Below, piece by piece: positions 155-16,344 of a DNA stretch of 37,720 nt. The stretch comes from Patescibacteria group bacterium (lineage in GTDB: Bacteria; Patescibacteriota; Gracilibacteria; JAHISY01). The translations under genes were made by a program, and so were the position numbers. The DNA is taken from assembly GCA_043799575.1 (NCBI GenBank), contig JAZDNQ010000010.1:1-37720 (forward strand). The letters run 5' to 3'. Below the pieces are notes generated by a model. That model was not told the origin of the DNA. It saw only the letters and a list, made by a program, of their open reading frames with translations, and ran no database searches. Within the stretch, counting starts at the first letter, position 1. Each line of letters opens with the position of its first letter.

Positions 155-982
155 TTAATTGGCCTCAAAAATTTTCGCAATTTCGGGATCTTGCCGAGCC
201 AGGAAAAAATTGGCAGCGAGCCAGCCCGCTTTTTGACCGCAGTCGAATCTTTGACCTGCGAGAATTTCACCAAAAATCGGCTCAGATTTTTGCAAGAGCG
301 CGAGCGCATCGATCAGCCGGATTTCGCCGGATGAATTTGGATGTGTCGCGAGAATGTCGAAAATTTTCTGTGGCACGATGTATTTCCCGACGATCGCGAG
401 ATCACTCGGCGCATTTTCAATCGACGGTTTTTCGACGAATTTTTGAATCGCGGAATTTTCGTCGAGCGCGACAATCCCGAAATGCGAGACTTCATCGCGC
501 GGTACTTTTTGCAGCCCGACGATCGCCGAATTTTTGGATTCGAACGCCGCGACGAGTTGCCGCGTCGGCTCGCCCAAAATCAGCTCGTCACCAAAAACGA
601 CGAGAAAATTTTCGTCCGAAATCTTCTCCCGCGCCTGCAAAATCGCGTGCCCGTCACCGTGCATTTCGCGCTGCTCGACGAATTCGAACTCGGCGAGTCG
701 GGAAATTTTTTGCACTTCGGCGAGCAATTTTTGATCGCCTTTTTCCGCCAATTTTTTTTCGAGTGCGACGCTCAGAGAAAAGTGATTTTGAATCGCTTCC
801 TTGCCGGCACTAATAACAAAGACGATTTTTTCGATCCCAGCCGAAACGATTTCCTCGACGAGAATTTGCAAAAGCGGACGATCGCCGATCGGAAAAAGTT
901 CCTTTGGGACCGCTTTCGACGCGGGCAGGAAGCGCGTGCCGAAGCCAGCGACCGGAATGACTGCAGTGCGAATTTTTGACAT
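155..982 (-). CDS. galU: UTP-glucose-1-phosphate uridylyltransferase
   Basis: AVIPVAGFGTRFLPASKAVPKEL N-terminal signature; FVEKP, AIVGKY and RFDCG motifs. Confidence 0.92.
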   Translation of the reverse strand: MSKIRTAVIPVAGFGTRFLPASKAVPKELFPIGDRPLLQILVEEIVSAGIEKIVFVISAGKEAIQNHFSLSVALEKKLAEKGDQKLLAEVQKISRLAEFEFVEQREMHGDGHAILQAREKISDENFLVVFGDELILGEPTRQLVAAFESKNSAIVGLQKVPRDEVSHFGIVALDENSAIQKFVEKPSIENAPSDLAIVGKYIVPQKIFDILATHPNSSGEIRLIDALALLQKSEPIFGEILAGQRFDCGQKAGWLAANFFLARQDPEIAKIFEAN

Positions 983-2274: not shown

Positions 2275-2303
2275 GCCGAAAATTGCTTTTTCGGCTTTTT
2301 TTT
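2275..2303 (+). terminator. Intrinsic terminator
   Basis: GCCGAAAA-ttgct-TTTTCGGC followed by T8, just after the stop at 2254. Confidence 0.75.
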
Positions 2304-2311
2304 GGTAAAAT
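2283..2311 (+). promoter_or_regulatory. Sigma70 promoter of the pilin locus, overlapping the terminator
   Basis: TTGCTT-17 nt-TAAAAT with extended TG. Confidence 0.6.
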
Positions 2312-2334
2312 TACGAGATTTAAAAACTAAAAAT

Positions 2335-3717
2335 TTGGGGAAAATTAAAACCAAAATCAGCGAATTTTTCGGACGACATCTGCACAGTTTCCAGGAGATG
2401 CTTTTTGCCCTGACCTTGGTTTTTGTGATCGGTGGTTTTGTTTTTGCGAATCTCGGACAAGGCGGGGAGCAGCTGAAAGCTTTTTTGCGTTTCGACAATC
2501 AGCCGAGCGCAGAGCTGCTCGCGGCCGACGCGACTTTGACTTTGCCGACCAGCAACAACGCACCGACAAGCGTAGTTAAATTTTCGCCCGGCGACATTTC
2601 GCAGTGGGGATCGAACGACGCACTGGTCCAAAATCTTTTCAAAAAAACTCTGATTTTCAAACTTTTGACAGTCGCGAAATATATTTTGGGCGGGATTTTC
2701 ATGCTATTTCTCGGACTTTATGTGATTAATTTTTTGATGTCCGGCGACAAACCCGAAGCGCTGAAAAAATTCAGCGATCAAATGCTGTGGTCATTTGTCG
2801 GCTTTTTGATTCTCGCGCTCGCCGAACCGTTTTCGCAGGCATTCAGTTTGCTGCGCACCGGGCAGGTCAATCTTTTGACTAATCCAGCTGCAGCACTCGC
2901 CTCGGCGCAAATCGTCGGCTTCACTTATCGCTCGGCCGCGCATTTGATTGAATACATCGTCGGCGGTGTCGCGCTGCTCACGATGGCCGGTTCGATTTTC
3001 GAAATGGTGACTTCGGTCGGCGACGAGGAAGGCGTGAAAAATGCGCGTAAGTCGATGACCTGGAGCGCGGTTGCCTTGATTGTGGTTGGCGGCGCAGCTC
3101 TTTTCATTGATAATGTTTTTGCGCCAAGCGATGCGATCAGCAAAGAGCTTCAGGGTGGACTTGACCCAGCGATTCAATTAATGGATATTTTGCAGACCGG
3201 GCAATCGCGCGCACGGATTTTGATTTTGGATTATGTTAAATATTTTCAAACTTTTATTGGCGCAGCTTCTGTCCTGATGCTTTTTTTGGCTGGCTTCAAA
3301 ATGGTCTCGGCTGGAGGCGAGGAGGAGGTCATCAAAAAACAAAAGAAAATGATTACCTGGATTTTTATGGGTCTTTCTGTGATTTTAATTTCGGAAGCTT
3401 TTGTGAATATTTTTATGCCGGATGTCGGCGGCCAAATTAAATTCAGCGCAGCGACTGCGATCCGCAGTTTCTCGGCGCAGGTCGGTGGCTTCACAAATTT
3501 CCTTTTAACCTTTTCGGCAGCAATCGCCGTGCTCGCTTTGATCGTCGGCGCACTTTATATTTCGACCGCTTTCACGAATGCTGAACAAGCACAAAAAGGT
3601 AAAAAGATCTTGTTGGCTGCAGGTCTAGGCTTAGTCGTAATTATTTCGGCTTATGCCTTAGTCAATACTGTCCTCTCAAGCGGCGCGAGCGGCGCGAGTA
3701 TTTCTATTTCAAATTAA
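2335..3717 (+). CDS. Membrane protein with four tandem VirB2/TrbC-like (T4SS pilin-like) domains
   Basis: N-terminal TM then four hydrophobic hairpins joined by acidic-basic loops (SGDKPEALKKFSDQMLW, VGDEEGVKNARKSMTW, AGGEEEVIKKQKKMITW, TNAEQAQKGKKILL); start moved to TTG 2335 because 2302 lies inside the promoter (ATG 2398 is an alternative). Confidence 0.75.
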   Translation: MGKIKTKISEFFGRHLHSFQEMLFALTLVFVIGGFVFANLGQGGEQLKAFLRFDNQPSAELLAADATLTLPTSNNAPTSVVKFSPGDISQWGSNDALVQNLFKKTLIFKLLTVAKYILGGIFMLFLGLYVINFLMSGDKPEALKKFSDQMLWSFVGFLILALAEPFSQAFSLLRTGQVNLLTNPAAALASAQIVGFTYRSAAHLIEYIVGGVALLTMAGSIFEMVTSVGDEEGVKNARKSMTWSAVALIVVGGAALFIDNVFAPSDAISKELQGGLDPAIQLMDILQTGQSRARILILDYVKYFQTFIGAASVLMLFLAGFKMVSAGGEEEVIKKQKKMITWIFMGLSVILISEAFVNIFMPDVGGQIKFSAATAIRSFSAQVGGFTNFLLTFSAAIAVLALIVGALYISTAFTNAEQAQKGKKILLAAGLGLVVIISAYALVNTVLSSGASGASISISN

Positions 3718-3718
3718 A

Positions 3719-5191
3719 ATGCCAAAAAAACAAAACAAAACGCTTTTCACAATTCGCAAAATTCGCAATGCTAATCCGCGTTTCCCGCGAATTTATCGTT
3801 CGGTTCGCGAAAGAATTTGGCGCTTTGCGGTCATCCTTTTGCTGATTTCGGCTGGAGTCGCGAGTCTTTTCTTTTTCGAAAATAGTCTCGTTGTGAAAAA
3901 ATTTGAGTCAAATTTAATCGCGGCGGACACGAGCCAGATTCTCGGCAGCGGGTTTCAAACGATCGGCGGATTTACTGGAATTGCCACCAATCCCGGCTCG
4001 GACAAAAAAACTGGTGGCTTCACAGCCAGCGGGATTAAGACAATCAACGCACTGATCTACAACGTCAAAGATTATTTCAAATACATCGCAGGCGGAGTAG
4101 CCGTGCTTTACCTGATTATCGCCGCATTTCAAATCATCATGGCGCGCGACAACGAAGGTATCACCAAAGGCAAAAAGAACTTATTTTGGAGCGTCTTCGC
4201 ACTGGTTTTAGTTTTTGTGGTCGACATCATGGTAATTGCCTTTTACGAAGGCGGCGGAAGCGCGCCCGGCCAAAGTATTTTCGTGGTCAATCCGAACGGG
4301 ACGACTGTCGAAAATCTGACTTTGCTACAGAATATTTCGCTGTATTTCAAAATCAACGCCAAAACAATTTTTAGCTACATCAAAACTTTGGTCGGCGCAT
4401 TTTCAATTTTATTTATCGTTTTCGCTGGCGTACAAATGGTGACGGCAGGCGGGTCGGACGAGAAAATCGAAAAAGAGAAAAAATATTTGATGCACCTCGT
4501 GACTGCTTTTGTCACGATTTTGCTGCTTGATGTAATAATTTTCGGCGTGATTTATCCCGAGGCGATCGATGGCAGCAGCAATCCGGAATGCGCGGAATTT
4601 ATGACTGCGGTCGCAAAAGGCGGTAGTCTCATGGCCGCGCCAGCAGGTTGTCGCTCGGCAGCCGAACTCGGTTTGATCGCCTCAAATCAAATCTTTGGCG
4701 TTGTCCGCTTTTTCGAAACTTTGATCGGCGGCATCGCCATCTTTTTTATGGTTTATTCGGCAGTCGCGATCATCGCGTCGATGGGCGAGGACGACATCGT
4801 GAAGAAGCATCGCACAACTCTGATGTGGAGTCTTGCCGGACTCGTTTTAGTCCTGGTCGCGAATACTCTTATTACGCGATTTTTCTTCATCGTCGACCCG
4901 ACTACCGGAACATCCAGCGTCTCTACAATGACCGGCATTCAGATAATTGCGGGTGTGACAAACTTCATTGCGACTTTTGTCGGTATTTTGTCAGTCATTG
5001 CGATCATCGTAGCTGGCTTCATGTGGGTCGCAAATTTCGGCAGCGACGACGTAGCAGGCAAAGCTAAAAAGGTGATTTTGAGTGCGGTCATCGGCGTGAT
5101 TCTCTCGGTTTCGGCATATGCAATCGTAAACACCATCACAAATGCGAACTCGCATGGTGGAACAGGAACCAATATCGGAGTATCACTTTAA
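3719..5191 (+). CDS. Membrane protein with four tandem VirB2/TrbC-like pilin domains
   Basis: Loops RDNEGITKGKKNLFW, AGGSDEKIEKEKKYL, MGEDDIVKKHRTTLMW, FGSDDVAGKAKKVIL, each between two hydrophobic helices; basic N-terminal leader. Confidence 0.78.
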   Translation: MPKKQNKTLFTIRKIRNANPRFPRIYRSVRERIWRFAVILLLISAGVASLFFFENSLVVKKFESNLIAADTSQILGSGFQTIGGFTGIATNPGSDKKTGGFTASGIKTINALIYNVKDYFKYIAGGVAVLYLIIAAFQIIMARDNEGITKGKKNLFWSVFALVLVFVVDIMVIAFYEGGGSAPGQSIFVVNPNGTTVENLTLLQNISLYFKINAKTIFSYIKTLVGAFSILFIVFAGVQMVTAGGSDEKIEKEKKYLMHLVTAFVTILLLDVIIFGVIYPEAIDGSSNPECAEFMTAVAKGGSLMAAPAGCRSAAELGLIASNQIFGVVRFFETLIGGIAIFFMVYSAVAIIASMGEDDIVKKHRTTLMWSLAGLVLVLVANTLITRFFFIVDPTTGTSSVSTMTGIQIIAGVTNFIATFVGILSVIAIIVAGFMWVANFGSDDVAGKAKKVILSAVIGVILSVSAYAIVNTITNANSHGGTGTNIGVSL

Positions 5192-5212
5192 TATTTCGTC
5201 AAGGTAGCTTGT

Positions 5213-5241
5213 TTGATTGGTAAGCACAGAAATGCTAAAAT
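5213..5241 (+). promoter_or_regulatory. Near-consensus sigma70 promoter
   Basis: TTGATT-17 nt-TAAAAT with extended TG (TGCTAAAAT). Confidence 0.7.
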
Positions 5242-5289
5242 GGCCGGATTTAAAAACAAAAATTTAAATCAAAAATTAACCCCCATAAA

Positions 5290-5424
5290 ATGGCCAAAAC
5301 CAAAACGGTTCGCGCGACTGCAAAACGCGCACACTTCTCGGTTCGCGCGATCCGCAACGCGAATCCGCGCCAATTCCGCGCACACCGCGCGGGCAGCGTG
5401 CTCGCTCGCATCTTCTCGTTTTAA
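5290..5424 (+). CDS. 44-aa basic microprotein (not in ORF track)
   Basis: MAKTKTVRATAKRAHFSVRAIRNANPRQFRAHRAGSVLARIFSF*; A-rich leader before ATG, own promoter, shares a 12-aa motif with the neighbouring genes. Confidence 0.7.
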   Translation: MAKTKTVRATAKRAHFSVRAIRNANPRQFRAHRAGSVLARIFSF

Positions 5425-5457
5425 TTTTTAAAACGGGAGGACGGCTAATCAAGTCGT

Positions 5458-6795
5458 ATGCCTCCAAAAATCAAAAATAAAACTCGACGCTCGCGTCCGG
5501 CGGTGCGGTTCACCGTCCGCCGGATTGCCAATCGAAATCCGCGCAACGCCCGGAATTTTCGGCAGTTTCGCCAAAAATTGACCCGGCTGACGATGGGTTT
5601 GATCGCACTCGGCCTGATCGCGGGCAGTCTTTTTTTGCACGGCGGGCAGCTAAAAAGTGATGTCGTCGCTACGACTCAGCCTGACCAAGCTGAAACAACT
5701 GTGGTCGCTGCAGACACGACAGCTTCGACAGCTACGGCTGTCGCAAACACCAGCGCAACAACCGCACAAAATTCGGCTAGCATGAACGACAAAGTTTGCG
5801 CGGCCGATGATTTGATTAAAAATTTCGAAGATTTGACCACCCAGCTCGCGAATTTGTCGCGCGAGTTTCCAGATGTCATCGCAAATCTAGACTTTTGCGG
5901 GACAGGCAAATGCGCCGCGCAAGATTTGGTTTACAAAAATGAAAACAAAATTTGGCAAATCGAAAAAGATTTGACCAAGCTCGAGACGGACACCACTCGC
6001 GCTCAGACTGATTTCGCGACCAGTTTGGCGGAAAAAGAAAATGGAGTGTTCCTTTGCGAAAACGAGTCGCGCTGCACCGCAGCTGAGGCTGCGCTCGGCA
6101 AAGCTCGTGAATGCGAAAAAACATTTCAAAAGCTGAACCAACTTTTCACTATTCGTACGGACGTACAGGACAAATATTCGCTCGTGACCGCGAAAGGCAC
6201 GCGCGAATCGGCTGCAGTTTATGTGAAAAAATTGATGGAAGATATTTTCAAAAATCGCGATCGCGTCACCGAAAACACGAAATTTTACGAGCAATGCGTT
6301 GCCGCAAGCGATGCGAGCGTTTGCCAGAAATACGTGCAAAAAGTGAAAGAGGCGAACACGAATATCGCAAAATCAATTGAAGAGCTCGGCGGTCTGCAAG
6401 TCGACCTACAGGACAATCTAGACAAGGTCGAGGCTGACATAGTCGCGCTCGAAATCGGTCGTGGCGATGCACAAAATACGAAAGAAAACGAAGGTCTCGG
6501 CTGGTGCGACCAAAATTTGAAAAATACGAAAGCGGATCTTTTTACCAAGCTGACTGCCGCAGCGGGCGCGAAAACGACTTACGACAACGCGCTACAGCAC
6601 TTGGTCGACCTCAAAATTACTCTGAAGGCAAGCCTCCAATCCGAAACGGAAGAGGCGGCAATGCACGCGGCAGCGGAAAAACAAGCTGCCGAGGAAGCGG
6701 AGGCAATCGCGGCAGCGGAGAAAGCAGCCGCGGCAAAACGCGCACAAGCCGAAATGGTTTTCGGATTTTGGACAATAATCCGCAATGGATTTTAA
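5458..6795 (+). CDS. Membrane-anchored or exported helical/coiled-coil protein with paired cysteines, function unknown
   Basis: Basic leader plus TM, Thr/Ala linker, heptad-rich body with CGTGKC, CENESRC, CVAASDASVC, Ala/Glu/Lys helix, aromatic C-terminus. Confidence 0.75.
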   Translation: MPPKIKNKTRRSRPAVRFTVRRIANRNPRNARNFRQFRQKLTRLTMGLIALGLIAGSLFLHGGQLKSDVVATTQPDQAETTVVAADTTASTATAVANTSATTAQNSASMNDKVCAADDLIKNFEDLTTQLANLSREFPDVIANLDFCGTGKCAAQDLVYKNENKIWQIEKDLTKLETDTTRAQTDFATSLAEKENGVFLCENESRCTAAEAALGKARECEKTFQKLNQLFTIRTDVQDKYSLVTAKGTRESAAVYVKKLMEDIFKNRDRVTENTKFYEQCVAASDASVCQKYVQKVKEANTNIAKSIEELGGLQVDLQDNLDKVEADIVALEIGRGDAQNTKENEGLGWCDQNLKNTKADLFTKLTAAAGAKTTYDNALQHLVDLKITLKASLQSETEEAAMHAAAEKQAAEEAEAIAAAEKAAAAKRAQAEMVFGFWTIIRNGF

Positions 6796-6798
6796 AAA

Positions 6799-8775
6799 AT
6801 GAAATTTCTCCAAGAACTTCACGCCAACAAAAAATTGCAATTCGCACTTGTGATCGCGGTCGCAGTTGCGCTGATTTTCGGTGGCTCCCAAGTGCGCGGT
6901 CACGAATTGGGGAGCGACGTCACGCTTTCGACAGGTGCGCTCGTCGCGGTGCAAGCCGAGGCGGACAAAGTCAAAGCCGCGCGTGATGAATATTTCGCCG
7001 CAATCGGGAAAGGCGACGGTGGCATATACGATCAATATATCGAAGCCGCGAACTGCCCAGTGAATTTGAACACGCGACTGACCGCGCTCAAAAATTTGCG
7101 TAACGATTTGCAGCGTCTTTCCGGCGAAATCGTGATGCGCGAACGCGAAAACGGCTCGGAATTGCCGCGCGGGACAATCGAGCGTGAATTGAATGTGATT
7201 GAGTCGACGATCCGTCCGAATTTACTTTTGAATCAACTCGAGACATTCCAAAGTGAGCTCGACAAAATCGAGACCGCGGCCGCGGGCGATCCGAGCAGTT
7301 CGGCGCAGGCAGTCACCGCCAGCGTCGCGACGGTTCGCGACAATTTGGAAAAAATCGGTACGGCTGATTCGCTCGTCGAGCCACTGAAAACAATTGAAAG
7401 TAAATTACCGTATTTGTCGGAAGTAACGAAAGAAATCACTTCGACAAGCTTGAGCAACTTGAATTCAATTATTGCGAATAGCAATGCCAGTGCGGCAATT
7501 CGCCCGACTTTGGCAACGATTCGCCAATTGGCCAATAATAATGATCAGAGTGATTTGATTGAACCCGAGCTGCAAAAAATTGAAAATACCCTGCCTAACT
7601 TTGCGGCTGACCAACAGACTACTATTCAAAGTAGTATCGATACAATCCGCAAATTATTGAGTCGCAAAACTGCGGTCGAGGTACGACAAGCCGAGATTTC
7701 GAGTGTCAAAAATGAAATGCAGCAAATCGCCGACGCGGTTTTCAGTCAAACGGAAATCACTCAGTTTGAAAATCAAGAGGTTGGTTTGCGCAACGAATTT
7801 CAAACAACGACCGCAGCCTTGCAAAATTGTACAGCAAACAATGATGAACTCGAGCGCTGCGCGGTTGAATTGCAGGATTGGGTGCTTGCGAAAGAAAATT
7901 ACGAGCAATTTATCACCAACCTCGAAAACACCGCTTCGGCTCGCACGATTCAGGCGCAAAATAAACTCAAACCTCTGCAGGAAAAATTGAATGACCTGCA
8001 GTCTGAGGAAAATGATCAAAATTTCAGTCCGGAATTGGGCAGTGCGTCATTGCTCGGCATCGAAGCACGATATTTGAAAGCAGATGAGGTTGATTTGAGT
8101 GGTATGGATATGAGCGCTTTTGACAACTGGGATGAGGGTGTACGTACAGCCGGAGGAGGATCGGTCGATGCCAGCTCCGTCAGTAGCGGCGACTCTAGTT
8201 GGTCGTTTTCCGGAGCGATGAGCTCGCTCGCGAGTGGCGCTGCTAGTGTCGGCTCAGCAGTCGGCTCGGTACTTGGCGGAGTCGTCTCTGCTCCGCTCGC
8301 TGCAGTCAGCGGACTGATTGGCGGAGCAAGTAATGTTTTGTCGAGCGGAATCAGTGCAGTCGCGCGCGCGACCGGAATTGCCGGTATCGGCAGTCTGACT
8401 TCATCCGCAGTCGTCTTCGACGGACCTGGTGCACTCACCGGACTACAAACATTCAAACAAAGCTACAAAGGCAATTCTTATGGCAGCGCGATCGGCGTCA
8501 TCACTGGCTGGACGAATTTCGCTTTACCTTTCGTAGGCGTCATCGCGATCGCCGTACTCGTTTACGCTGGCTTCCTGTATCTCACCGCCGCAGGCAGCGA
8601 AGACCAAACCAAAAAAGCCAAAAATATTCTTATCTGGGTTGCGATCGGTATCATTATTATTTTCTCGGCCTACGCGATCGTCAATACTTTGCTCTCAACC
8701 AATAGCAGCAGCGGTGGCAGCGGCACAAGCGTCGGTGTGAATATTGGAGGAATTGGTTTTAATTACAGCAACTAA
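6799..8775 (+). CDS. Large helical protein with Gly/Ser/Ala-rich segment and C-terminal VirB2/TrbC-like pilin domain
   Basis: C-terminal WTNFALPFVGVIAIAVLVYAGFLYLTAAGSEDQTKKAKNILIWVAIG is a typical CPR pilin-like hairpin. Confidence 0.78.
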   Translation: MKFLQELHANKKLQFALVIAVAVALIFGGSQVRGHELGSDVTLSTGALVAVQAEADKVKAARDEYFAAIGKGDGGIYDQYIEAANCPVNLNTRLTALKNLRNDLQRLSGEIVMRERENGSELPRGTIERELNVIESTIRPNLLLNQLETFQSELDKIETAAAGDPSSSAQAVTASVATVRDNLEKIGTADSLVEPLKTIESKLPYLSEVTKEITSTSLSNLNSIIANSNASAAIRPTLATIRQLANNNDQSDLIEPELQKIENTLPNFAADQQTTIQSSIDTIRKLLSRKTAVEVRQAEISSVKNEMQQIADAVFSQTEITQFENQEVGLRNEFQTTTAALQNCTANNDELERCAVELQDWVLAKENYEQFITNLENTASARTIQAQNKLKPLQEKLNDLQSEENDQNFSPELGSASLLGIEARYLKADEVDLSGMDMSAFDNWDEGVRTAGGGSVDASSVSSGDSSWSFSGAMSSLASGAASVGSAVGSVLGGVVSAPLAAVSGLIGGASNVLSSGISAVARATGIAGIGSLTSSAVVFDGPGALTGLQTFKQSYKGNSYGSAIGVITGWTNFALPFVGVIAIAVLVYAGFLYLTAAGSEDQTKKAKNILIWVAIGIIIIFSAYAIVNTLLSTNSSSGGSGTSVGVNIGGIGFNYSN

Positions 8776-9299
8776 TGCTCACAAAAAAACTTCTTCGCGA
8801 CAAGAGAATGGTTCTCGGCATCATGCTCGGAGCGATCATTTTTTCGATCGCACTTTTTGGTCGAATGACTGGCAATTATTTAACCGCGGCAGTCGATTTG
8901 AATTTGGGCGGAGTGCTCGGCGGACTCGGAGTCGATGTCTCGACCGGTGGTTTCAATTTCAGCACAGGCGGCGGATCAGCCGTCCAACCGGGCTGCGGCG
9001 GCGGCAATTGCCTCGTCGTGCCCAACGCCGGAGTTTATTCTGGCATCGTAGGCGCAACCTCGATCCGTGACGCGATTATCAAATGGACGAATTTTTTTCT
9101 CGGATTTCTGACTCTAATCGCGATGATTATTCTGATTTACGCCGGCTTCATGTACATCACCGCAGCTGGAAGCGACGACCAAGCCAAAAAAGCCAAAAAT
9201 ACAATTATCTGGGTCGTGATTGGAATTATTATTATCATGCTCGCTTACGCCTTTGTGAATACTTTTATCACGACTGGCCCGACAGGCCGGGATTACTAA
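8775..9299 (+). CDS. Single-domain VirB2/TrbC-like pilin
   Basis: IYAGFMYITAAGSDDQAKKAKNTIIWVVIG; TAATG stop/start overlap with the upstream gene. Confidence 0.82.
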   Translation: MLTKKLLRDKRMVLGIMLGAIIFSIALFGRMTGNYLTAAVDLNLGGVLGGLGVDVSTGGFNFSTGGGSAVQPGCGGGNCLVVPNAGVYSGIVGATSIRDAIIKWTNFFLGFLTLIAMIILIYAGFMYITAAGSDDQAKKAKNTIIWVVIGIIIIMLAYAFVNTFITTGPTGRDY

Positions 9300-9309
9300 T
9301 CAAACCAAA

Positions 9310-11493
9310 ATGGAAAACCAAGATCTCTCCGATTTCGATGAAATTGCCGCTCCGGCTCATCCAGAGGAAACTCTCGCTGATCGTGTCGCCGCCGAAAAAC
9401 CGCAGCCAATGAATAAAAAACCGATCAACGGGAAAAAAATGGCGTGGGGCTGTCTCTTTCTGTTTTTGGCTGTTTTCTTCATTTTGCTGATCGCGATGGC
9501 GCTCGGATTGAACGCCAATGAAGATACAATATTGAGCCTCGGTCTCAATCCGGTCAGTCTCAAAAACTGGTCGATCGGAATGGTCAATTTCTTTTTCGGC
9601 GCGATCGCTCTGACCAGTTTAATCGTGATGATTTCGAGCCTGACGCGACGTCTGCTCGGCAAAAGAGAAGATGTTTTCGGTATGAACCGCGCGATGAAAA
9701 GAGTTTTTGTCAGTTTTGGAGTTTTCATCACAACAGTTTCAGTGTGGTTCTTGGTTTACGATTATTTCAGCCAGTTCGAAATGAAAGAACCCGAGCTGCC
9801 GATCGAGATCGTGACAAATCCAACGGAAACTTTGAATCTCACGTCTCCAGTACGAGTCGAATTTTCCGCGGAACGTATCACTCAAAAATTTCAGTCGGAT
9901 TACAAAATAATTAGCTATGAATGGGACAAAGAAAATGACGGAAGCATCGACGAAACCGGTCCAAAAACGACGATTTATTTTGTCGATGGCGGCAAAGACA
10001 ACGGTTTTTTTAACGTCAACCTGACAGTAAAAATTCAGCCAAAAACCGGCGGGCCGGTCGAGACGCGGAAATACGAAAAACAAGTTTCGATTTCGAATCA
10101 AAAAATCTACGGCGAAATCACGACTGATAAAGAATCGGGTGAAGCGCCTTTGATGGTGCGTTTCAACGCGAACGGAATCAAAGATCCGAGCGGCGCGAAA
10201 ATTACGAATTTCAGCTGGGATCTCGACGGCGACGGGCGCCCGGATCGCGACGGCGCGAGCTACGGCACGACCGAGTGGACTTTCGAAAAAATCGGCGAAC
10301 ACACTGTGACTTTGGTCGTGACTTCCGCGGATTACAATGACGACGGCACACACGAAACACAATCTTTCGAAAAAACGATCACTGTCCGTGAACCGGCCGG
10401 TGCAGTGAAATCGAATATTTGGATTGAAGCAACTCCGCAGCGCGGTTTTTCACCGCTCGCGGTCACGCTCATCGCGAAAAATGAATCACTCGACAAAGAT
10501 GCTCCACGCATCGACAAATACGAATGGCGCATCGGCGATGGAATGGCGACACTTTTTGGCCAGCGCACCAAATACACTTTCGACAAACCGGGCAATTATC
10601 CGGTTTCGTTGATTGTTACTTTCGCGAATGGACAAATGAGCAGTGCAACAGAAGAGATCGTGGTCAATGACCAAAGTTTTTCACCAACCGCAAAAATCAC
10701 CAGCGATCCGGCGATGAATAGTTCGAAAAAGGCGATCACTGGTCCAGCGCCTTTGACAGTCAAATTCGACGGAACAAAGTCAACCGACCCGGATGATAAT
10801 ATCGTGAAATACGATTGGGATTTCGACGGCGACGGATTTTGGGACGAAGAAGGCAGTACGATTTTGCACGAATTCCGGACAGCTGGTGAATACGAAACAG
10901 TTTTGCGCATCACTGATGCCGACGGCAATGAATCACGCGCGACGATCAAAGTCATCGCGGGAGAGGAAAACGCTATTATCAGCTTCGGCGCAGACAAACT
11001 TTCCGGTGCGGCGCCACTCACAGTCGATTTCGACGCTTCTGGCTCGCGTGTCCCGACTGGCAAAAAAATTATTTCGTACGAGTGGAATTTCGCAGCTGAC
11101 AAAGATCAAAACAAAACTTTCATTTACGATCGCGCGCAAACTTCGCATGTTTTCGAAACCGTCGGCGAGCATCTCGTGAAGCTAACTTTGCACGCGGACG
11201 ACGGCAGCGAATATTACGACACCCTAAAAATCGTGGCTTCGTACGCTTCGCTGCAGGCGAATTTCAATATGTCACGTAGTACTGGTCCGACTCCGCTCGC
11301 GATTTCTTTCGATGCGACTGCTTCAAGCGGCGAATTCACACGCGTCGCGTGGAATTTCGGCGACGGCACGACGAGTACCGAACAAAAACCGAGCCACATC
11401 TTCGAAAAATCCGGCAAGTATGAAGTCGTACTCAAGATTTACGACGCGTTTGGCAATATCTCGCAAACGAGTAAAACTGTAACTGCCAATTAA
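9310..11493 (+). CDS. PKD-domain surface protein (three N-terminal TM helices, six PKD/Ig repeats)
   Basis: Six GxxPLxVxF-like starts and W[DN]xxDG motifs (SWDLDGDG, DWDFDGDG, AWNFGDG). Confidence 0.88.
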   Translation: MENQDLSDFDEIAAPAHPEETLADRVAAEKPQPMNKKPINGKKMAWGCLFLFLAVFFILLIAMALGLNANEDTILSLGLNPVSLKNWSIGMVNFFFGAIALTSLIVMISSLTRRLLGKREDVFGMNRAMKRVFVSFGVFITTVSVWFLVYDYFSQFEMKEPELPIEIVTNPTETLNLTSPVRVEFSAERITQKFQSDYKIISYEWDKENDGSIDETGPKTTIYFVDGGKDNGFFNVNLTVKIQPKTGGPVETRKYEKQVSISNQKIYGEITTDKESGEAPLMVRFNANGIKDPSGAKITNFSWDLDGDGRPDRDGASYGTTEWTFEKIGEHTVTLVVTSADYNDDGTHETQSFEKTITVREPAGAVKSNIWIEATPQRGFSPLAVTLIAKNESLDKDAPRIDKYEWRIGDGMATLFGQRTKYTFDKPGNYPVSLIVTFANGQMSSATEEIVVNDQSFSPTAKITSDPAMNSSKKAITGPAPLTVKFDGTKSTDPDDNIVKYDWDFDGDGFWDEEGSTILHEFRTAGEYETVLRITDADGNESRATIKVIAGEENAIISFGADKLSGAAPLTVDFDASGSRVPTGKKIISYEWNFAADKDQNKTFIYDRAQTSHVFETVGEHLVKLTLHADDGSEYYDTLKIVASYASLQANFNMSRSTGPTPLAISFDATASSGEFTRVAWNFGDGTTSTEQKPSHIFEKSGKYEVVLKIYDAFGNISQTSKTVTAN

Positions 11494-11496
11494 TTT

Positions 11497-12450
11497 ATGC
11501 AAGCCAAAATTTATTTCTTCGAGGTCGAGCCAACCGACCGCAAAGCTATTTTGCAAAAATATCCCAAAGCGCAGATTTTTGCTGCGCCATTTTCCACGAA
11601 ACTTTTGCCAAAATGTAAATCAGCGGAAATTATTTGTGGAATGGTGCATTCGGATTTTTCGCGCAAAAATTTGGTGCAACTGCCAAATCTAAAATTGGTC
11701 GTGACACGCACGGCGGGCTACGACCACATCGATTTGAAATATCTCGCTGAGCGCAAAATCCCAGCGGGTTTCGTCCCAGAATACGGCTCGTACGCGATCG
11801 CGGAGCATGTTTTCGCGCTGCTGCTCACGAGCTGCCGCAATGTTTTGGAAGGGGAGGAGCGCACCAGTCATGACAATTTTTCGTGGTGCGGTCTGCGCGG
11901 CAAAGCACTCAATGGCCACACCATCGGCGTGATCGGCACGGGCCGCATCGGCGCGCAAGTTTGCCGCATCGCGAGCGACGGATTTTTGATGAATGTCCTC
12001 GGCTACGACGTGCTGAAAAATCCCGAGCTGAAAAAATTGCGCAATTTCAAATATACGAGTCTCGCGAATTTGCTGAAAAAAGCCGATTTTATTTCGCTGC
12101 ATTTGCCGCTTTTGCCGACGACGCAACATCTCATCAATGCAAAAACGATCGCGCAAATGAAAACCGGTGTTGTTTTGATCAATACTGCGCGGGGCGGATT
12201 GATCGATACTCCCGCGCTCGTGAAGGCGATTAAAAAAGGCAAATTTGGTCGCGTCGCGCTGGATGTCGTCGAGCACGAAAATAATTTGCGCGAAGACCGC
12301 AAATTGCTGCATTTACCACATGTGGTGATCACACCGCACATCGCGTTTTACACTGAGGAAACGAATGAAAAAATGTATCTCGAGGCATTTCGCTCGATTG
12401 ATGAATTTCAAAAAGGTAAAAAGCTGACGCACCAAATTGTGGGTCAATAG
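11497..12450 (+). CDS. D-isomer-specific 2-hydroxyacid (D-lactate-like) dehydrogenase
   Basis: TRTAGYDHID, GVIGTGRIG, LINTARGGLID, ITPHIAFYT. Confidence 0.9.
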   Translation: MQAKIYFFEVEPTDRKAILQKYPKAQIFAAPFSTKLLPKCKSAEIICGMVHSDFSRKNLVQLPNLKLVVTRTAGYDHIDLKYLAERKIPAGFVPEYGSYAIAEHVFALLLTSCRNVLEGEERTSHDNFSWCGLRGKALNGHTIGVIGTGRIGAQVCRIASDGFLMNVLGYDVLKNPELKKLRNFKYTSLANLLKKADFISLHLPLLPTTQHLINAKTIAQMKTGVVLINTARGGLIDTPALVKAIKKGKFGRVALDVVEHENNLREDRKLLHLPHVVITPHIAFYTEETNEKMYLEAFRSIDEFQKGKKLTHQIVGQ

Positions 12451-12837: not shown

Positions 12838-13074
12838 ATGGGAAACGAGCCTTCGTTTGGCAGACGAAAGGCGGTGCGAGCTTTTAAAAAATTGGGATTT
12901 TTGGTTGTGAAAGACCGTGGCAAAGGCAGCCATTATTTGATCGTTCACCAAGCTGGTAATTTCCCTTTACCGAAAGAAAAACATGACGGTTATCCGCCCG
13001 GATTTTGTAAAGGAATCGAACGCTATTTAAACAGCTGCGGATTCACTTACGGAGATTTCCTGCGAAAAATTTAA
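12838..13074 (+). CDS. hicA: HicA-family mRNA interferase toxin
   Basis: 78 aa, AFKKLGF...RGKGSHY motif. Confidence 0.78.
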   Translation: MGNEPSFGRRKAVRAFKKLGFLVVKDRGKGSHYLIVHQAGNFPLPKEKHDGYPPGFCKGIERYLNSCGFTYGDFLRKI

Positions 13075-13084
13075 TAACGAAATT

Positions 13085-13160
13085 TGGCAGGCCCAGAAGG
13101 ATTCGAACCCTCCCTTGCGGTTTTGGAGACCGCCGTGCTAACCACTGACACTATGGGCCT
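13085..13160 (-). tRNA. tRNA-Trp(CCA)
   Basis: Cloverleaf AGGCCCA...TGGGCCT-G-CCA, anticodon loop ctCCAaa, GTTCGAATC T-loop. Confidence 0.95.
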
Positions 13161-13181
13161 ATTTTTGTGAGCGCGATTTTA

Positions 13182-14087
13182 TCAATTCACGAGAAAATAA
13201 GCGATTCCGAGAATCGCGAAACTGCCAAGCGAAGTCAGCACGACCAGATTCGCGACTTCGCCGACGAAAAATTTGTAGCGTTCGGCGAAAACCGCGAGCG
13301 AAATCGCCGCCGGAATGCCGGATTGCAAAAGCAAAAATTGGTGCAGCGACGCGTCCGGTTTCAGCCAAAACTGCAAAATTAAAAAAGTCGCGAGCGGCAG
13401 CGCGAGCAAACGAAAGAGCGCGAGCGGAATTGATTTCCGCAATTCAGCCAAAGAAAAATTTTCGAAAATAAAAATGCCGAGTGCAAAAATCGCGAGTGGC
13501 CCGGCGGTCTGGCCAATCAGTCCGGCCGCGTCGAGCAGCGGTTTCGCCGGAACTTTTAAAATTGAAAAAACGACGCCAGCGAGAATCGCGAGAATCAGCG
13601 GATTGCGAAAAATTTTCCCACAAAAACACCAGCCCGAACCGCGTGCCGTCGCATATTCAAAAAGATAAATCGTGAGCAAAATCCCGACCGGTCCGAGAAT
13701 CGAGGAAGAAATAATCGCGAAATTGAGACCCGCATCGCCCGCGAGCGCCTCGAAAAAAGTCACGCCAAAAAAGGCATTTGAACCGAAGACAATCGCGAGC
13801 GCGAGCAGCGCGAAAGTATTTTTCGAGAGAATCCGCATGACGCGCAAAATCAGCAAAAACGCGAGCAGCGCGAAAATCGGCGCGAGCGAACCGAGCACGA
13901 TTTTCGGATCGATCGAAGCGAGATCAGTCTCGGCAATTTTGGCGAAAAAGAGCGCGGGCAGCGCGAAATAGTAAATATAATTACTGAGTCCACGCGTGTG
14001 CTCGGCATTCAAAATCTGCAATCGGCGCGCGAGCCAGCCGAAAAAAATCACCAGCGCGAGCGTCCCGAGAGCGAAGAAAATTGCCAT
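13182..14087 (-). CDS. AEC (auxin efflux carrier) family transporter
   Basis: About ten TMs, YFALPALFF, FGSNAFFG, FRNPLILA. Confidence 0.88.
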   Translation of the reverse strand: MAIFFALGTLALVIFFGWLARRLQILNAEHTRGLSNYIYYFALPALFFAKIAETDLASIDPKIVLGSLAPIFALLAFLLILRVMRILSKNTFALLALAIVFGSNAFFGVTFFEALAGDAGLNFAIISSSILGPVGILLTIYLFEYATARGSGWCFCGKIFRNPLILAILAGVVFSILKVPAKPLLDAAGLIGQTAGPLAIFALGIFIFENFSLAELRKSIPLALFRLLALPLATFLILQFWLKPDASLHQFLLLQSGIPAAISLAVFAERYKFFVGEVANLVVLTSLGSFAILGIAYFLVN

Positions 14088-14140
14088 TTTTTTATTTGAA
14101 AGAAAGTTTTGTAAAATGATTTTAATTTAATTTCGCAAAA

Positions 14141-15070
14141 ATGCTGACAACTTCAACCGAACTCTTTCAAAAAGCGCTCGCGGGCAAATACGCGCTCGGC
14201 GCATTCAATGTGAATAATCTCGAAATAATCCAAGGAATCATGGAAGGCGCGCGCGCGAAGAAAGCGCCGCTAATTTTACAAGTTTCGGCGGGCGCGCGGG
14301 AATACGCCGGCGCGCCGTTTTTGCGGAAATTGGTCGAAGGCGCGGCGGAAATTTACGAGGAAATTCCGATCGTCTTCCACCTCGACCACGGCGTGGATTT
14401 CGAAATTTGCAAAGACTGTATCGATCACGGTTTCACGAGCGTGATGATTGACGGCTCGAAATTTTCCTTCGAAGAAAATATCGCGCTCACGAAAAAAGTC
14501 GTCGAATACGCGCACACGAAAGGCGTCGTCGTCGAGGGCGAGCTGGGAAAATTGGAGGGCATCGAGGACGACGTGAAAGTCGCGGCGGGCGAGGGAAGCT
14601 ACACCGATCCAGAACAAGCCGCAGAATTCGTCGCGAAAACGGGTGTCGATTCGCTCGCGGTCGCGATCGGGACGTCGCACGGCGCGTACAAATTTCCGCC
14701 GAATGTCGATCCGAAACTCGACTTCGAGCGCGCGAAAAAGATTTTCGAACTCGTGAAAATACCACTCGTGCTCCATGGTGCGAGCTCGGTGCTGCAGTAT
14801 CTTGTCGCGACGATCAATAAATTCGGCGGGAAAGTCGAAAACTCAAAAGGCGTACCGGAAGAGGCGATCACCGAAGCGACGAAATGCGGCGTCGCAAAAG
14901 TGAATATCGACACGGATATTCGGCTCGCGATGACCGCCGCAGTGCGCCAAAATCTCGTCGAAATGCCGGAAAATTTTGATGTCCGAAAATTCCTCGGCGC
15001 AGCGCGAACAGCTGTCCAAAAAATGGTCGAGCACAAAATCGATATTCTCGGTTGCGCGGGGAAAATTTAA
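14141..15070 (+). CDS. fba: Class II fructose-1,6-bisphosphate aldolase
   Basis: FHLDHG, FTSVMIDGS, VEGELG, AIGTSHGAYKF, LVLHGAS, KVNIDTD. Confidence 0.95.
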   Translation: MLTTSTELFQKALAGKYALGAFNVNNLEIIQGIMEGARAKKAPLILQVSAGAREYAGAPFLRKLVEGAAEIYEEIPIVFHLDHGVDFEICKDCIDHGFTSVMIDGSKFSFEENIALTKKVVEYAHTKGVVVEGELGKLEGIEDDVKVAAGEGSYTDPEQAAEFVAKTGVDSLAVAIGTSHGAYKFPPNVDPKLDFERAKKIFELVKIPLVLHGASSVLQYLVATINKFGGKVENSKGVPEEAITEATKCGVAKVNIDTDIRLAMTAAVRQNLVEMPENFDVRKFLGAARTAVQKMVEHKIDILGCAGKI

Positions 15071-16344
15071 CGACAGCTTGCCGGAATCCCGGTTTCGCCC
15101 AAAATTTTGTAAGTTTCAGAATAATCGTTTTGGATATCCCAAACCGTGAAACCGCAAATTCCGGCGTCAAAAACGGCCGCGATTTGGTCACGCATTTGTT
15201 TCGTCGTCGTGTAAAAACCCTGAATCCACGGCCGCAGTTTTTTCGCATTGTCACCCAAAAGTCTTTGGTATTTCTGCAAAGTCAGATAAACCGTCGAGTA
15301 TTCGAAACTCGTGCCTTTCAAATAATATTTTTGGTTGTCGCGTGAAAAAGTCGACGGGTAAAGCATCGGCGAGATGATATCCGCGAGATCGGCAAGTTTG
15401 CGAATGTCTTGTCCGAGCGCGTTCGCGGTTTGATTGGCATCTTCCCACGGAATCACTGCAAAAGTATCGACTGAAAGAATCGCGTCGCGTTTTTGGGAAT
15501 CAATCGCTTCGCGCGCCATCGCGACGAAATTCGTGATATTTTGAATTTTTTGCTGACCAGTCAGCCCGAGAAAAGCGCTTGTGAATTTGTCGGGATAGCG
15601 AATGAAATCGAGATTAATTTCGTCAACGCCCGCCGCGACGATCTCGGAAATAATTTGGCGATTGTACTCGATGACCTCGGAATCGGTAGGATCGACCCAC
15701 TCGGGCACTGGCTCGCGAGAATATTTGCCGGTCAGCCAAACTTCTGGATTGCCGAAAGCGAACTGCGGATCTTTGACTGCGATGACGCGCGCAATCGTGT
15801 AAATCCCAGCTGAATTGAGTTGTTCAACAATCTTCGGCAAATCGTAAAGTGGTTTGATCAAACCGTTTTCTTTCGCGATTGCGGAACTTGAATTGAAATA
15901 AACATAACTACCCTTAACATCGAAAAGAATCGACGGATGGTCGAGCTGCTTCAGCTTTTCAATTTCTTTCGCAAGAAAAGTTTTGTTCGCGACATTATTC
16001 ATATGCACATACACGCCGATCTTTTTCTCGGCTTGGCGGCGCGCACTCGCACTCGGCAAAAGTTCGGTCTCAGGCAAAGCGTCGAAAACCATTTTTTGCA
16101 CTGCAGCGTCTGCTGAACCGGAAAAGCTAGCATAAATTTCGTCATAAAGTTTCGGCGGGGGAGTGTAAAAAACATCTTCGGCCGAACCATTTTCGACCGC
16201 GAAAGTGTAATTGAGGAAAAGATTGCCGCCAGCCAAGATGCTCGCGAGCAGGCAGAAAAATAAGGCAAAACTAAAAATTTTGAGCGAGCGCCGTGTACGG
16301 CTGACGAAATCGGATTCGAGCAGAATCTCCCGGGAGCTGTGCAT
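15067..16344 (-). CDS. Putative glycoside hydrolase (DUF4015-like TIM barrel), membrane-anchored
   Basis: IYTIARVIAVKD, WVDP, GVDEINLDFIRYP, ISPMLYPS, LRPWIQGF. Confidence 0.8.
   Translation of the reverse strand: MHSSREILLESDFVSRTRRSLKIFSFALFFCLLASILAGGNLFLNYTFAVENGSAEDVFYTPPPKLYDEIYASFSGSADAAVQKMVFDALPETELLPSASARRQAEKKIGVYVHMNNVANKTFLAKEIEKLKQLDHPSILFDVKGSYVYFNSSSAIAKENGLIKPLYDLPKIVEQLNSAGIYTIARVIAVKDPQFAFGNPEVWLTGKYSREPVPEWVDPTDSEVIEYNRQIISEIVAAGVDEINLDFIRYPDKFTSAFLGLTGQQKIQNITNFVAMAREAIDSQKRDAILSVDTFAVIPWEDANQTANALGQDIRKLADLADIISPMLYPSTFSRDNQKYYLKGTSFEYSTVYLTLQKYQRLLGDNAKKLRPWIQGFYTTTKQMRDQIAAVFDAGICGFTVWDIQNDYSETYKILGETGIPASCR

Follow-up and report, generated by a model that had tools for sequence, protein, structure and literature searches.

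Short conserved motifs in the N-region of the leader, such as YSIRK-G/S and ESPR, are a known feature of some envelope proteins. T4SS propilins, in turn, carry leader peptides that undergo processing (PMC3297438). VirB2-like pilin arrays are described as widespread in Patescibacteria, where they comprise 2-11 genes and number 441 in 383 assemblies, and in one member that has been cultivated, T4SS genes are reported to be essential for growth as an epibiont (PMC12102498). The locus described here is a pilin gene array in which two membrane proteins and a free-standing small protein share an N-terminal module; its genes, within the window (the whole stretch of 37,720 nucleotides that was analysed), are the following.

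2302..3717, forward strand: 471-aa protein with repeated T4SS_pilin domains (PF18895, 3.2e-22, in 4 stretches), first gene of the array, without the module
3719..5191, forward strand: P1, 490 aa, consisting of module, first TM and repeated T4SS_pilin domains (PF18895, 1.3e-24)
5213..5241, forward strand: promoter-like site TTGATT-17-TAAAAT with TG extension, upstream of the small ORF (consensus match only)
5290..5424, forward strand: small ORF encoding a 44-aa free-standing copy of the module, with a codon-3 variation pattern
5458..6795, forward strand: P3, 445 aa, consisting of module, TM, low-complexity linker and a Cys-containing all-helical domain, without a pilin domain
6799..8775, forward strand: 658-aa protein with a C-terminal T4SS_pilin domain, without the module
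8775..9299, forward strand: 174-aa single T4SS_pilin/TrbC-like pilin, without the module
9310..11493, forward strand: membrane protein of 727 aa containing five PKD domains, where the syntenic array ends

The promoter-like block is conserved in five of the six aligned loci. A T4SS machine was looked for beside the array and none was found, and PF03135 and PF04610 have no match anywhere in the genome. On another contig, a 947-aa TrwB/VirD4-like ATPase is encoded.

A 38-residue module in three adjacent genes

A first-pass annotation of this DNA had drawn attention to a motif, F[TS][IV]RxIxNxNPR, shared by three consecutive genes, placed 10-18 residues from the start in a very basic leader and ahead of the first TM where there is one. 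These observations hold: the motif is in frame in all three ORFs (3746-3781, 5335-5370 and 5509-5544), with its F at residue 10 of P1, 16 of the 44-aa protein and 18 of P3, and the ratios of K+R to D+E in the respective leaders are 10/1, 11/0 and 15/0. The first hydrophobic 19-residue window stands at residue 32 in P1 and at residue 41 in P3, the 44-aa protein having none, so that about 10-20 residues lie between NPR and the hydrophobic segment in the membrane-bound copies. By the positive-inside rule, a motif placed like this one, at the basic flank of the first TM, would face the cytoplasm, as had been proposed.

The motif is the core of a longer, ungapped N-terminal module, which starts with a basic tail, continues with the motif itself and ends with an Arg-rich amphipathic helix, the whole being acid-free and arginine-rich. 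Seventeen copies from six loci align over 38 residues with no gaps, and F10, R13, I15, N17, N19, P20, R21 and R24 are invariant among them. The copies in the window are these.

3719..3832, forward strand: module copy 1, 38 aa, in P1 (module profile score 60.4 bits)
5308..5421, forward strand: module copy 2, 38 aa, in the 44-aa protein (64.4 bits)
5482..5595, forward strand: module copy 3, 38 aa, in P3 (56.7 bits)

The three proteins had been called otherwise unrelated, which is correct insofar as BLASTP similarity among them is limited to the N-termini; it nevertheless spans 38 residues rather than 12, and between P1 (residues 2-53) and P3 (residues 3-61; E 2e-7) it extends through the first TM.

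The module was also regarded at first pass as undescribed, and no database looked up contains it. In hmmscan against Pfam, the three N-termini match no family at E up to 10; neither NCBIfam nor PHROGs matches the module or the small protein, the ESM Atlas returned no usable match for either, searching the PDB with a profile of 16 small proteins, at E up to 10, finds no sequence, and no listed paper from a literature search for the motif peptide bears a relevant title. The earlier view that the motif is neither a Tat nor a prepilin signal is borne out as well. A Tat signal (S/T-R-R-x-F-L-K before the hydrophobic region) is rejected, as the position of the twin arginine is occupied by RK in P1, RA in the 44-aa protein and RR only in P3, and as NPR stands 10-19 residues ahead of the first hydrophobic window; TatC (PF00902) has no match in the genome, which is 91.96% complete, the control being positive in 11 of 14 reference genomes. 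A type IV prepilin leader is rejected for lack of any N_methyl-type match at E up to 10 and of a visible G-F/M site, and YSIRK-G/S and ESPR are rejected because, even with E allowed up to 10, neither Pfam model matches any of these N-termini. The arrangement of T4SS propilin leaders, with a basic and a hydrophobic region before a VirB2-like pilin domain, is found in P1 and in 6 of 9 further module-bearing proteins, and is absent from P3 and the 44-aa protein.

P3 itself matches no Pfam or NCBIfam family. Seven of its Cys residues are invariant and two nearly invariant. Its AF2 model (pLDDT 67.9, with residues 1-27 below 50) was compared with the PDB in a fold search that gave no matches at E up to 0.001 and only generic helical bundles, and no clear small-x-small cleavage site was seen by eye after the TM.

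Distribution of the module and selection on the peptide

When the whole genome (930,587 bases in 72 contigs) was scanned in all six frames, that is at 1,860,886 codon positions, the slightly relaxed pattern F[TS][IVL]R.I.N.NPR matched exactly three times, namely at the three copies in the window, against a chance expectation of 0.0002 derived from six-frame residue frequencies. The module profile likewise matches three of 17,867 six-frame segments. Only one of the 11 ORFs with a T4SS_pilin match in this genome carries the module; three of the others (471, 658 and 174 aa) belong to the very same array, whose other pilin proteins have short ordinary leaders. Pilin biogenesis as such thus does not need the module. 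The module is present in all 11 other genomes of the same taxonomic family, always in adjacent genes, with three copies in seven of the eight others of the same genus, two in the eighth (71% complete), and 2, 2 and 4 copies in the family's three other genera. The pair formed by the small ORF and a module-bearing membrane protein following it recurs in the family loci inspected.

Profile searches of other genomes and of 1,835,955,588 representative proteins found no credible copy outside the family. The 11 credible matches among these proteins are all N-terminal, beginning at residues 1-25; what comes next is a hydrophobic stretch in every case except the small proteins, where the chain ends. 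One further protein match (P0017), an internal repeat protein, was judged spurious by eye, and an out-of-family match in genome G537 reaches 19.3 bits with 17 of 38 positions in an open frame of 32 aa. Among the nine further module-bearing membrane proteins tested, the six with a T4SS_pilin domain can be set beside P3 and two of its relatives, which have none; single-pilin proteins of 187 and 194 aa are also found among the bearers. The first-pass annotation had taken the motif for a tag of components of the apparatus and expected tagged proteins, in this proteome and in other Patescibacteria, to be enriched for surface or pilin proteins; with three products, one of 11 pilin-domain ORFs and a single family, it does not tag these components in general. 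Having been found in one family only, the module is a solution peculiar to that lineage and no signal of general use, and its reach is limited accordingly.

Selection on the peptide, suggested earlier from synonymous differences (ATT/ATC, AAT/AAC, GCT/GCG, CGT/CGC) that are indeed present among the window copies, is evident from the orthologues, because their variation falls almost entirely at third codon positions. Over the 12 motif codons, the variable sites at codon positions 1/2/3 number 4/6/10 in the P1 family (9 DNA variants), 1/2/11 in the P3 family (11 variants) and 4/1/12 in the small-protein family (12 variants), so that in each family 10-12 of the 12 codons vary at the third position, with much less variation at the first two; the same periodicity is visible in the DNA alignment of the loci. 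Orthologues keep the motif, which is always preceded by the start. One might imagine instead a DNA or RNA element read in frame by chance, as the word AATCCGCG is present in all three window copies, and as such words can mimic the peptide: an out-of-family profile match in genome G284 (21.4 bits) proved spurious, overlapping a tRNA-Ser gene on the opposite strand. Among orthologues, however, this word varies synonymously (AAT/AAC, CCG/CCA/CCC, CGC/CGT/CGA/CGG), its frame, its distance to the start and the flanking residues are all conserved, and Rfam has no match over 3000-7000 at E up to 1. For practical purposes the synonymous variation refutes such an element, which we regard as extremely improbable. 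In this pilin gene array, the module is a real feature under selection, restricted to a very narrow lineage.

The 44-aa protein and two predicted hairpins

The small ORF encodes little beyond the module: 11 of its 44 residues are K or R, none is D or E, and the chain terminates where P1 and P3 begin their TM helix, its C-terminus being mildly amphipathic where the TM would be. It is the most conserved protein of the array, with 80-93% identity across four syntenic loci, compared with 42-58% for P3 and 50-67% for P1, and the flanking ORFs (155-982, reverse strand, and 11497-12450, forward strand), at 67-80%, also remain below it. In the AF2 model (pLDDT 62.3, pTM 0.23) helices are weakly predicted at residues 3-23 and 26-42.

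One could see in these basic stretches only passive topogenic, lipid-binding juxtamembrane segments derived from a duplicated leader cassette, with the 44-aa protein as an unrelated small peripheral membrane peptide. A duplicated cassette predicts precisely that the similarity of P1 and P3 includes the TM; the extremely basic composition agrees with it, as does the helix that follows NPR in both AF2 models. Yet a cluster of charges needs no F, I, N, N and P invariant across genera, conservation of the free copy exceeds that of the ORFs flanking the array, and the other pilin proteins of the array do without such leaders, which leaves this a doubtful explanation.

Two predicted RNA structures lie between the end of the small ORF and P3.

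5412..5440, forward strand: predicted hairpin between the end of the small ORF (last codons and stop) and the purine-rich box AAAACGGGAGG
5441..5457, forward strand: second predicted hairpin, a small one, situated after the purine-rich box and before the P3 ATG

In the first, the arms are formed by 5412-5422 and by the box at 5430-5440, and the 11 pairs are kept in all six close loci; a double-sided compensatory change is seen in none of 16 pairs. In the single folds of loci L017 and L018, CUUCUC pairs in a comparable way with a G-rich box further downstream, and in locus L003 a similar pairing is recognised by eye from the sequence, not from its fold. A hairpin at the position of the second occurs in single-sequence folds of six close loci, each time formed by a different sequence. 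The 235-nt leader region has a folding z of -5.5, the final ATC TTC TCG codons of the small ORF are unusually constant at their third positions among the aligned loci, and the peptide is conserved to its last residues, RIFS[FL]. The 44-aa ORF appears to be translationally coupled to P3.

The same data could be read as a translation device, in which the small ORF is a regulatory uORF whose translation, or the pausing of its nascent chain, would open a hairpin masking the ribosome-binding box of P3, with the module at the start of P1 and P3 modulating their own early elongation or targeting. The pairing in all the close loci, its counterparts in the three further loci, the folding z of the leader region, the constant final codons and the conserved peptide end all favour it, and a chain of 44 aa is short enough for the ribosome tunnel. 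Plain translational coupling, however, accounts for the hairpin without arrest, and covariation is missing. Known monitoring substrates sense the translocon through a signal or TM, and the 44-aa protein has neither; P1, moreover, has the motif without such an upstream ORF, and conservation covers the whole module and not just its stop-codon end. We consider this device unlikely.

An arginine-rich peptide could alternatively bind RNA, such as the hairpins of its own operon, or DNA at the membrane, the array being suspected to belong to a nucleic-acid-moving system. The high K+R content without any acidic residue and the predicted hairpins conserved in the same transcript speak for such binding, and the F-x-V-R start may resemble the strand of ribbon-helix-helix proteins. 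Against it, searches at E up to 10 find no DNA- or RNA-binding family, two of the three copies are tethered to the membrane, which is unusual for such peptides, and AF2 gives, at low confidence, a helix and not a strand for the F-x-V-R stretch. The ribbon-helix-helix fold was rejected on the grounds of this helix, itself weak evidence, and of the absence of any family or PDB sequence at E up to 10. Nucleic-acid binding is, on the whole, quite improbable.

A possible assembly handle and its relation to known systems

The explanation to which we give the most weight, with a probability of roughly 45%, is that the module heads a leader cassette of propilin type, next to the membrane on its cytoplasmic side, and that several products use it in common as a handle for docking or assembly, with the free 44-aa copy acting at the same site. 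That the module runs straight into the first TM in two membrane proteins suggests that module and TM together make up one long leader cassette, whose head, by the positive-inside rule, would lie on the cytoplasmic face of the membrane. There it may be recognised as a shared handle, either by other copies of the module or by one putative insertion, extraction or processing factor common to the array proteins, and the products of the array would in this way be brought to the same place. The free copy, whose ORF immediately precedes P3, might act there as cofactor or competitor.

The helix predicted by AF2 to run unbroken from P28 of NPR through the TM of P3 to residue 60 is consistent with this handle, and so is the frequent occurrence of a T4SS_pilin domain among the module bearers (P1 and six of the nine further proteins). 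On the other side stand the weakly predicted fold of the 44-aa protein, the lack of a pilin domain in P3 and two relatives, and the fact that three acid-free copies would repel each other unless lipid or nucleic acid intervenes. A pure sorting signal, for its part, does not explain a free-standing copy without a TM. The handle could be taken further by supposing the 44-aa protein to be a leader mimic, which, produced from a strongly promoted ORF coupled to P3 in translation, would occupy the cytoplasmic receptor site of the leaders and gate or meter the insertion or assembly of array proteins. This is a speculative extension and on balance an unlikely one; if true, it would constitute a previously unseen layer of control for a T4SS-like surface apparatus, of the kind thought to be needed for the epibiotic life of candidate-phyla bacteria. 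In any case, a leader module common to two array proteins and a free small protein offers a testable handle on the insertion, sorting or assembly of pilin-like proteins, with a peptide for pulling partners and a small gene open to deletion or overexpression.

Compared with YSIRK-G/S and ESPR leaders, the start F[TS][IV]R[KR] resembles YSIRK on paper, but here the TM comes only after some 10-20 more residues, one copy lacks any hydrophobic region, and the occurrence is limited to three adjacent genes in one family. Like the SecM, MifM and VemP uORFs, the small ORF is highly conserved and directly precedes a gene for a membrane protein, whose ribosome-binding box lies in a predicted hairpin; the structure at the end of the small ORF would hide the downstream site in the same manner, whereas the N-terminal signal or TM that would address the translocon is not part of the 44-aa protein. 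Such uORFs are not known to be homologous to the N-terminus of the downstream product, unlike the 44-aa protein and P3. With the T4SS propilin leaders of VirB2, TrbC and TraA the module shares a long basic stretch and a hydrophobic segment before a VirB2-like pilin domain; it differs in that no sequence relation to them was detected, in that it also heads the non-pilin P3 and exists as a free-standing copy, and in that most pilins of the genome lack it. Lastly, while the available text of the survey of VirB2-like arrays in Patescibacteria mentions no shared leader motif or small ORF, the arrays it describes resemble this one in being made up of divergent PF18895 genes in tandem, with a non-pilin gene breaking the row (PMC12102498).

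The motif and the module around it

The motif F[TS][IV]RxIxNxNPR occurs in frame, close to the beginning of each of three successive open reading frames (ORFs) on the plus strand, exactly where the first-pass annotation had placed it:

3719-5191, plus strand: P1, a multi-pilin protein of 490 aa; motif F is residue 10
5290-5424, plus strand: small protein of 44 aa; motif F is residue 16
5458-6795, plus strand: P3, a Cys-containing membrane protein of 445 aa; motif F is residue 18

When the 930,587-base genome was searched in six frames with the regex F[TS][IVL]R.I.N.NPR, exactly three sites were returned, all in these ORFs, against 0.0002 expected by chance in 1,860,886 positions (six-frame residue frequencies); the observation is thus confirmed, far above chance. 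The true starts do not lie downstream of the motif: they are upstream of it at all loci read, no start codon was found between motif and transmembrane helix (TM), and P3 has a conserved start, M-P-P-K or M-S-P-K (GTG in two loci), with in-frame stops immediately ahead of it.

The motif forms the core of a longer module: an alignment of 17 copies, drawn from the window and from five related loci, spans 38 residues with zero gaps, F10, R13, I15, N17, N19, P20, R21 and R24 being invariant. Past the NPR, the pattern x-x-R-x-[FYH]-[RH] ... [LI]-x-R runs directly into the first hydrophobic window, which begins at residue 32 in P1 and residue 41 in P3. As the small protein stops where P1 and P3 turn hydrophobic, it amounts to the module alone, a free-standing copy. 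The three proteins had been called otherwise unrelated, which holds insofar as BLASTP detects no significant similarity among them beyond the N-terminal region; the shared part is nevertheless longer than 12 residues and, between P1 and P3, extends through the first TM (residues 2-53 versus 3-61, E 2e-7). The centre of the motif is always I-R-N-A-N-P-R in the small protein and always I-A-N-R-N-P-R in P3, while P1 orthologues alternate between the two; judging from these sequences, an arginine seems to be required next to the first Asn, before or after it.

That the leaders ahead of the first TM are very basic is borne out by their K+R/D+E counts of 10/1 (P1), 11/0 (small protein) and 15/0 (P3). 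An arginine-rich nucleic-acid binder is a very unlikely reading of the module. A passive basic juxtamembrane segment, simply retained by descent, is also unlikely, because a charge cluster would not need F, I, N, N and P to be invariant.

Selection on the peptide, as originally proposed, is supported by the distribution of variable sites among codon positions, counted over the 12 motif codons in the rows picked by the regex (the divergent P3-like copy from locus L018 was left out for want of a regex match). At positions 1/2/3 the counts are 4/6/10 in the P1 family (9 distinct DNA copies), 1/2/11 in the P3 family (11 distinct DNA copies) and 4/1/12 in the small family (12 distinct DNA copies, 9 distinct peptides), so that third positions vary most in each family. 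Likewise, the DNA alignment of the small ORF from six loci has a three-base rhythm, two positions kept and the next variable, and the DNA word AATCCGCG itself changes synonymously among copies. A DNA or RNA element as the object of conservation is effectively refuted by these counts; no Rfam match (E up to 1) was found in window positions 3000-7000.

Distribution and genomic setting

In the window's genome, the module profile gives three matches of 56.7-64.4 bits, the next best among 17,867 six-frame segments of at least 30 aa reaching 14.6 bits. The genome encodes 11 T4SS_pilin ORFs (E up to 0.001), and P1 alone among them bears the module, which contradicts the idea of a tag for apparatus components generally. 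The motif is kept in orthologues: among 401 genomes of the class, all 11 others of the same family carry the module, with three copies in 7 of 8 same-genus genomes (two in the eighth, 71% complete) and 2, 2 and 4 copies in the family's three other genera. The copies invariably sit next to one another, and the core arrangement that recurs is the small ORF with a gene for a module-bearing membrane protein immediately after it.

Among the 389 genomes of other families, a single match of 21 bits was rejected as spurious, because a tRNA-Ser gene overlaps it on the other strand. There (L019 1501-1560; G284:C6:8378-8437), the antisense of the tRNA-Ser 3' end, FSIRKIRDSNPR, mimics the motif, a warning for pattern searches. 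A broader 33-row profile, run on a phylum-wide sample of 401 genomes, picked up only the window's genome, a congener and a single match of 19 bits on a frame of 32 aa. Against 1,835,955,588 representative proteins there were 12 matches at E up to 0.001, of which 11 look real, all N-terminal. The bearers include multi-pilin proteins, small proteins of 47-56 aa, one P3 orthologue, a 194-aa protein (module, TM and one pilin domain), a 404-aa protein (module, Cys-rich region and pilin) and a 377-aa protein without family; Pfam finds a pilin domain in six of nine further module-bearing proteins.

The locus is a pilin array of the VirB2-like type known from Patescibacteria, for which the main text of PMC12102498 reports 441 arrays of 2-11 genes each, some broken by a non-pilin gene; that main text has zero mentions of "leader" or "signal peptide". 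P1 contains repeated T4SS_pilin domains (PF18895), which Pfam also matches in the plus-strand genes at 2302-3717, 6799-8775 and 8775-9299; NCBIfam names these pilin-array genes Mbov_0395-type pilin-like conjugal transfer protein. No family in Pfam, NCBIfam or PHROGs was matched by P3 or by the small protein. The adjacent genes 2302-3717 and 3719-5191 are "poly-pilin" genes with about four T4SS_pilin domains per polypeptide, the second beginning one base past the first one's stop. Immediately ahead of the array, positions 1151-2254 encode a 367-aa protein that combines Sigma70 region 4 with a HARE-HTH domain; in the three loci that extend far enough to include it (L001, L002, L004), its identity is 83-89%, above that of its neighbours. 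Elsewhere in the genome, contig C26 carries two further pilin genes at its start and, at 13063-15906, the gene of a 947-aa protein that matches TrwB_AAD_bind and T4SS-DNA_transf, adjoining an FtsK gene; PF03135 (VirB4) and PF04610 (VirB6/TrbL) have no match in the genome.

The small protein and P3

Synteny covers the entire locus in L001, L002 and L004, and part of it in the short L003. The small protein is the best-conserved member of the array.

Identity to the window gene in four syntenic loci
Small protein: 80-93%
P1: 50-67%
P3: 42-58%
Flanking ORFs 155-982 (minus) and 11497-12450 (plus): 67-80%

Its 16 family members share invariant F16, I21-R27 (IRNANPR), R30, V37 and R40-S43 (RIFS), and AF2 structure prediction from their alignment gives, at low confidence, helices 3-23 and 26-42 with a break at N-P (pLDDT 62.3, pTM 0.23). 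For P3 (11 rows; pLDDT 67.9, residues 1-27 below 50), a single helix is predicted that starts at P28 of the NPR, crosses the TM and ends at residue 60; behind it comes an all-helical domain for which a fold search gave no informative PDB neighbour. Since this helix begins at the NPR and runs through the TM, the NPR has the look of an N-cap to a juxtamembrane helix; the motif's first half, on the same models, resembles a segment that would need a partner to fold. The outer domain of P3 has seven invariant and two nearly invariant Cys, suggesting disulfides, and past an Ala/Glu-rich helix its tail (6730-6795) conserves F-G-[IF]-W-x-x-[IV]-R-N-x-F, possibly a second short conserved end motif.

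Several candidate expression signals accompany the two genes:

5213-5241, plus strand: promoter-like site (TTGATT, 17 nt, TAAAAT with TG), kept in 5 of 6 aligned loci
5246-5289: A-rich leader of the small ORF, about 42 nt, with no Shine-Dalgarno box
5412-5422 with 5430-5440, plus strand: predicted hairpin pairing the last small-ORF codons with AAAACGGGAGG

Within the leader, all six aligned loci share the conserved DNA block TTAACCCC(C/A)A.AAAATG. Folding of the 235-nt region scores z = -5.5, and 6 of 6 close loci retain the 11 pairs of the hairpin, through wobble changes only and with no double compensatory change. The purine-rich GGGAGG box of this pairing lies 17-25 nt from the P3 ATG, beyond normal Shine-Dalgarno spacing unless a second small predicted hairpin, which adjoins the first (both within 5412-5457) and occupies this interval, closes the gap. 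The simplest reading of these predictions is translational coupling, in which a ribosome ending the small ORF would free the box for P3. In more distant loci the CUUCUC/G-rich pairing is kept, with longer, structured spacers. Between the small ORF and P3, the spacers of L003, L005 (a long perfect hairpin), L015 and L017 are strongly structured and measure 86-146 nt, versus 33-41 nt in the closest loci. That the module is itself a translation-level device based on the upstream ORF is distinctly unlikely.

Proposed role and known signals

Module and TM together would form a leader cassette common to pilin-array proteins, with its head on the cytoplasmic side. Tentatively (probability about 0.45), the module may serve these proteins as a common handle for docking or assembly on the membrane's inner face, and the 44-aa protein may act at that site too. 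This reading is favoured because a charge cluster would not require the invariant residues, and because a pure sorting signal needs no free, TM-less and better conserved copy.

The module has no entry in Pfam, NCBIfam, PHROGs or PDB sequences, a literature word search returned nothing relevant, and there is no prior description in the main text of PMC12102498 or passages of PMC3297438. It is real, selected and testable, but restricted to a single family and to three gene products in each genome, with a role that is proposed.

The view that it is neither a Tat nor a prepilin signal was upheld: RR is not consistent, the gap to the TM is long, TatC was not found in the genome, and the N-termini match no prepilin or YSIRK/ESPR family (Pfam, E up to 10). 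T4SS propilins are known for processed leaders, as passages of PMC3297438 describe, and in its working the module comes closest to the leader of a propilin or to a signal peptide that bears a motif, although by sequence it is a member of neither. It belongs with the known leader-borne motifs of envelope proteins, from which its free-standing copy sets it apart.
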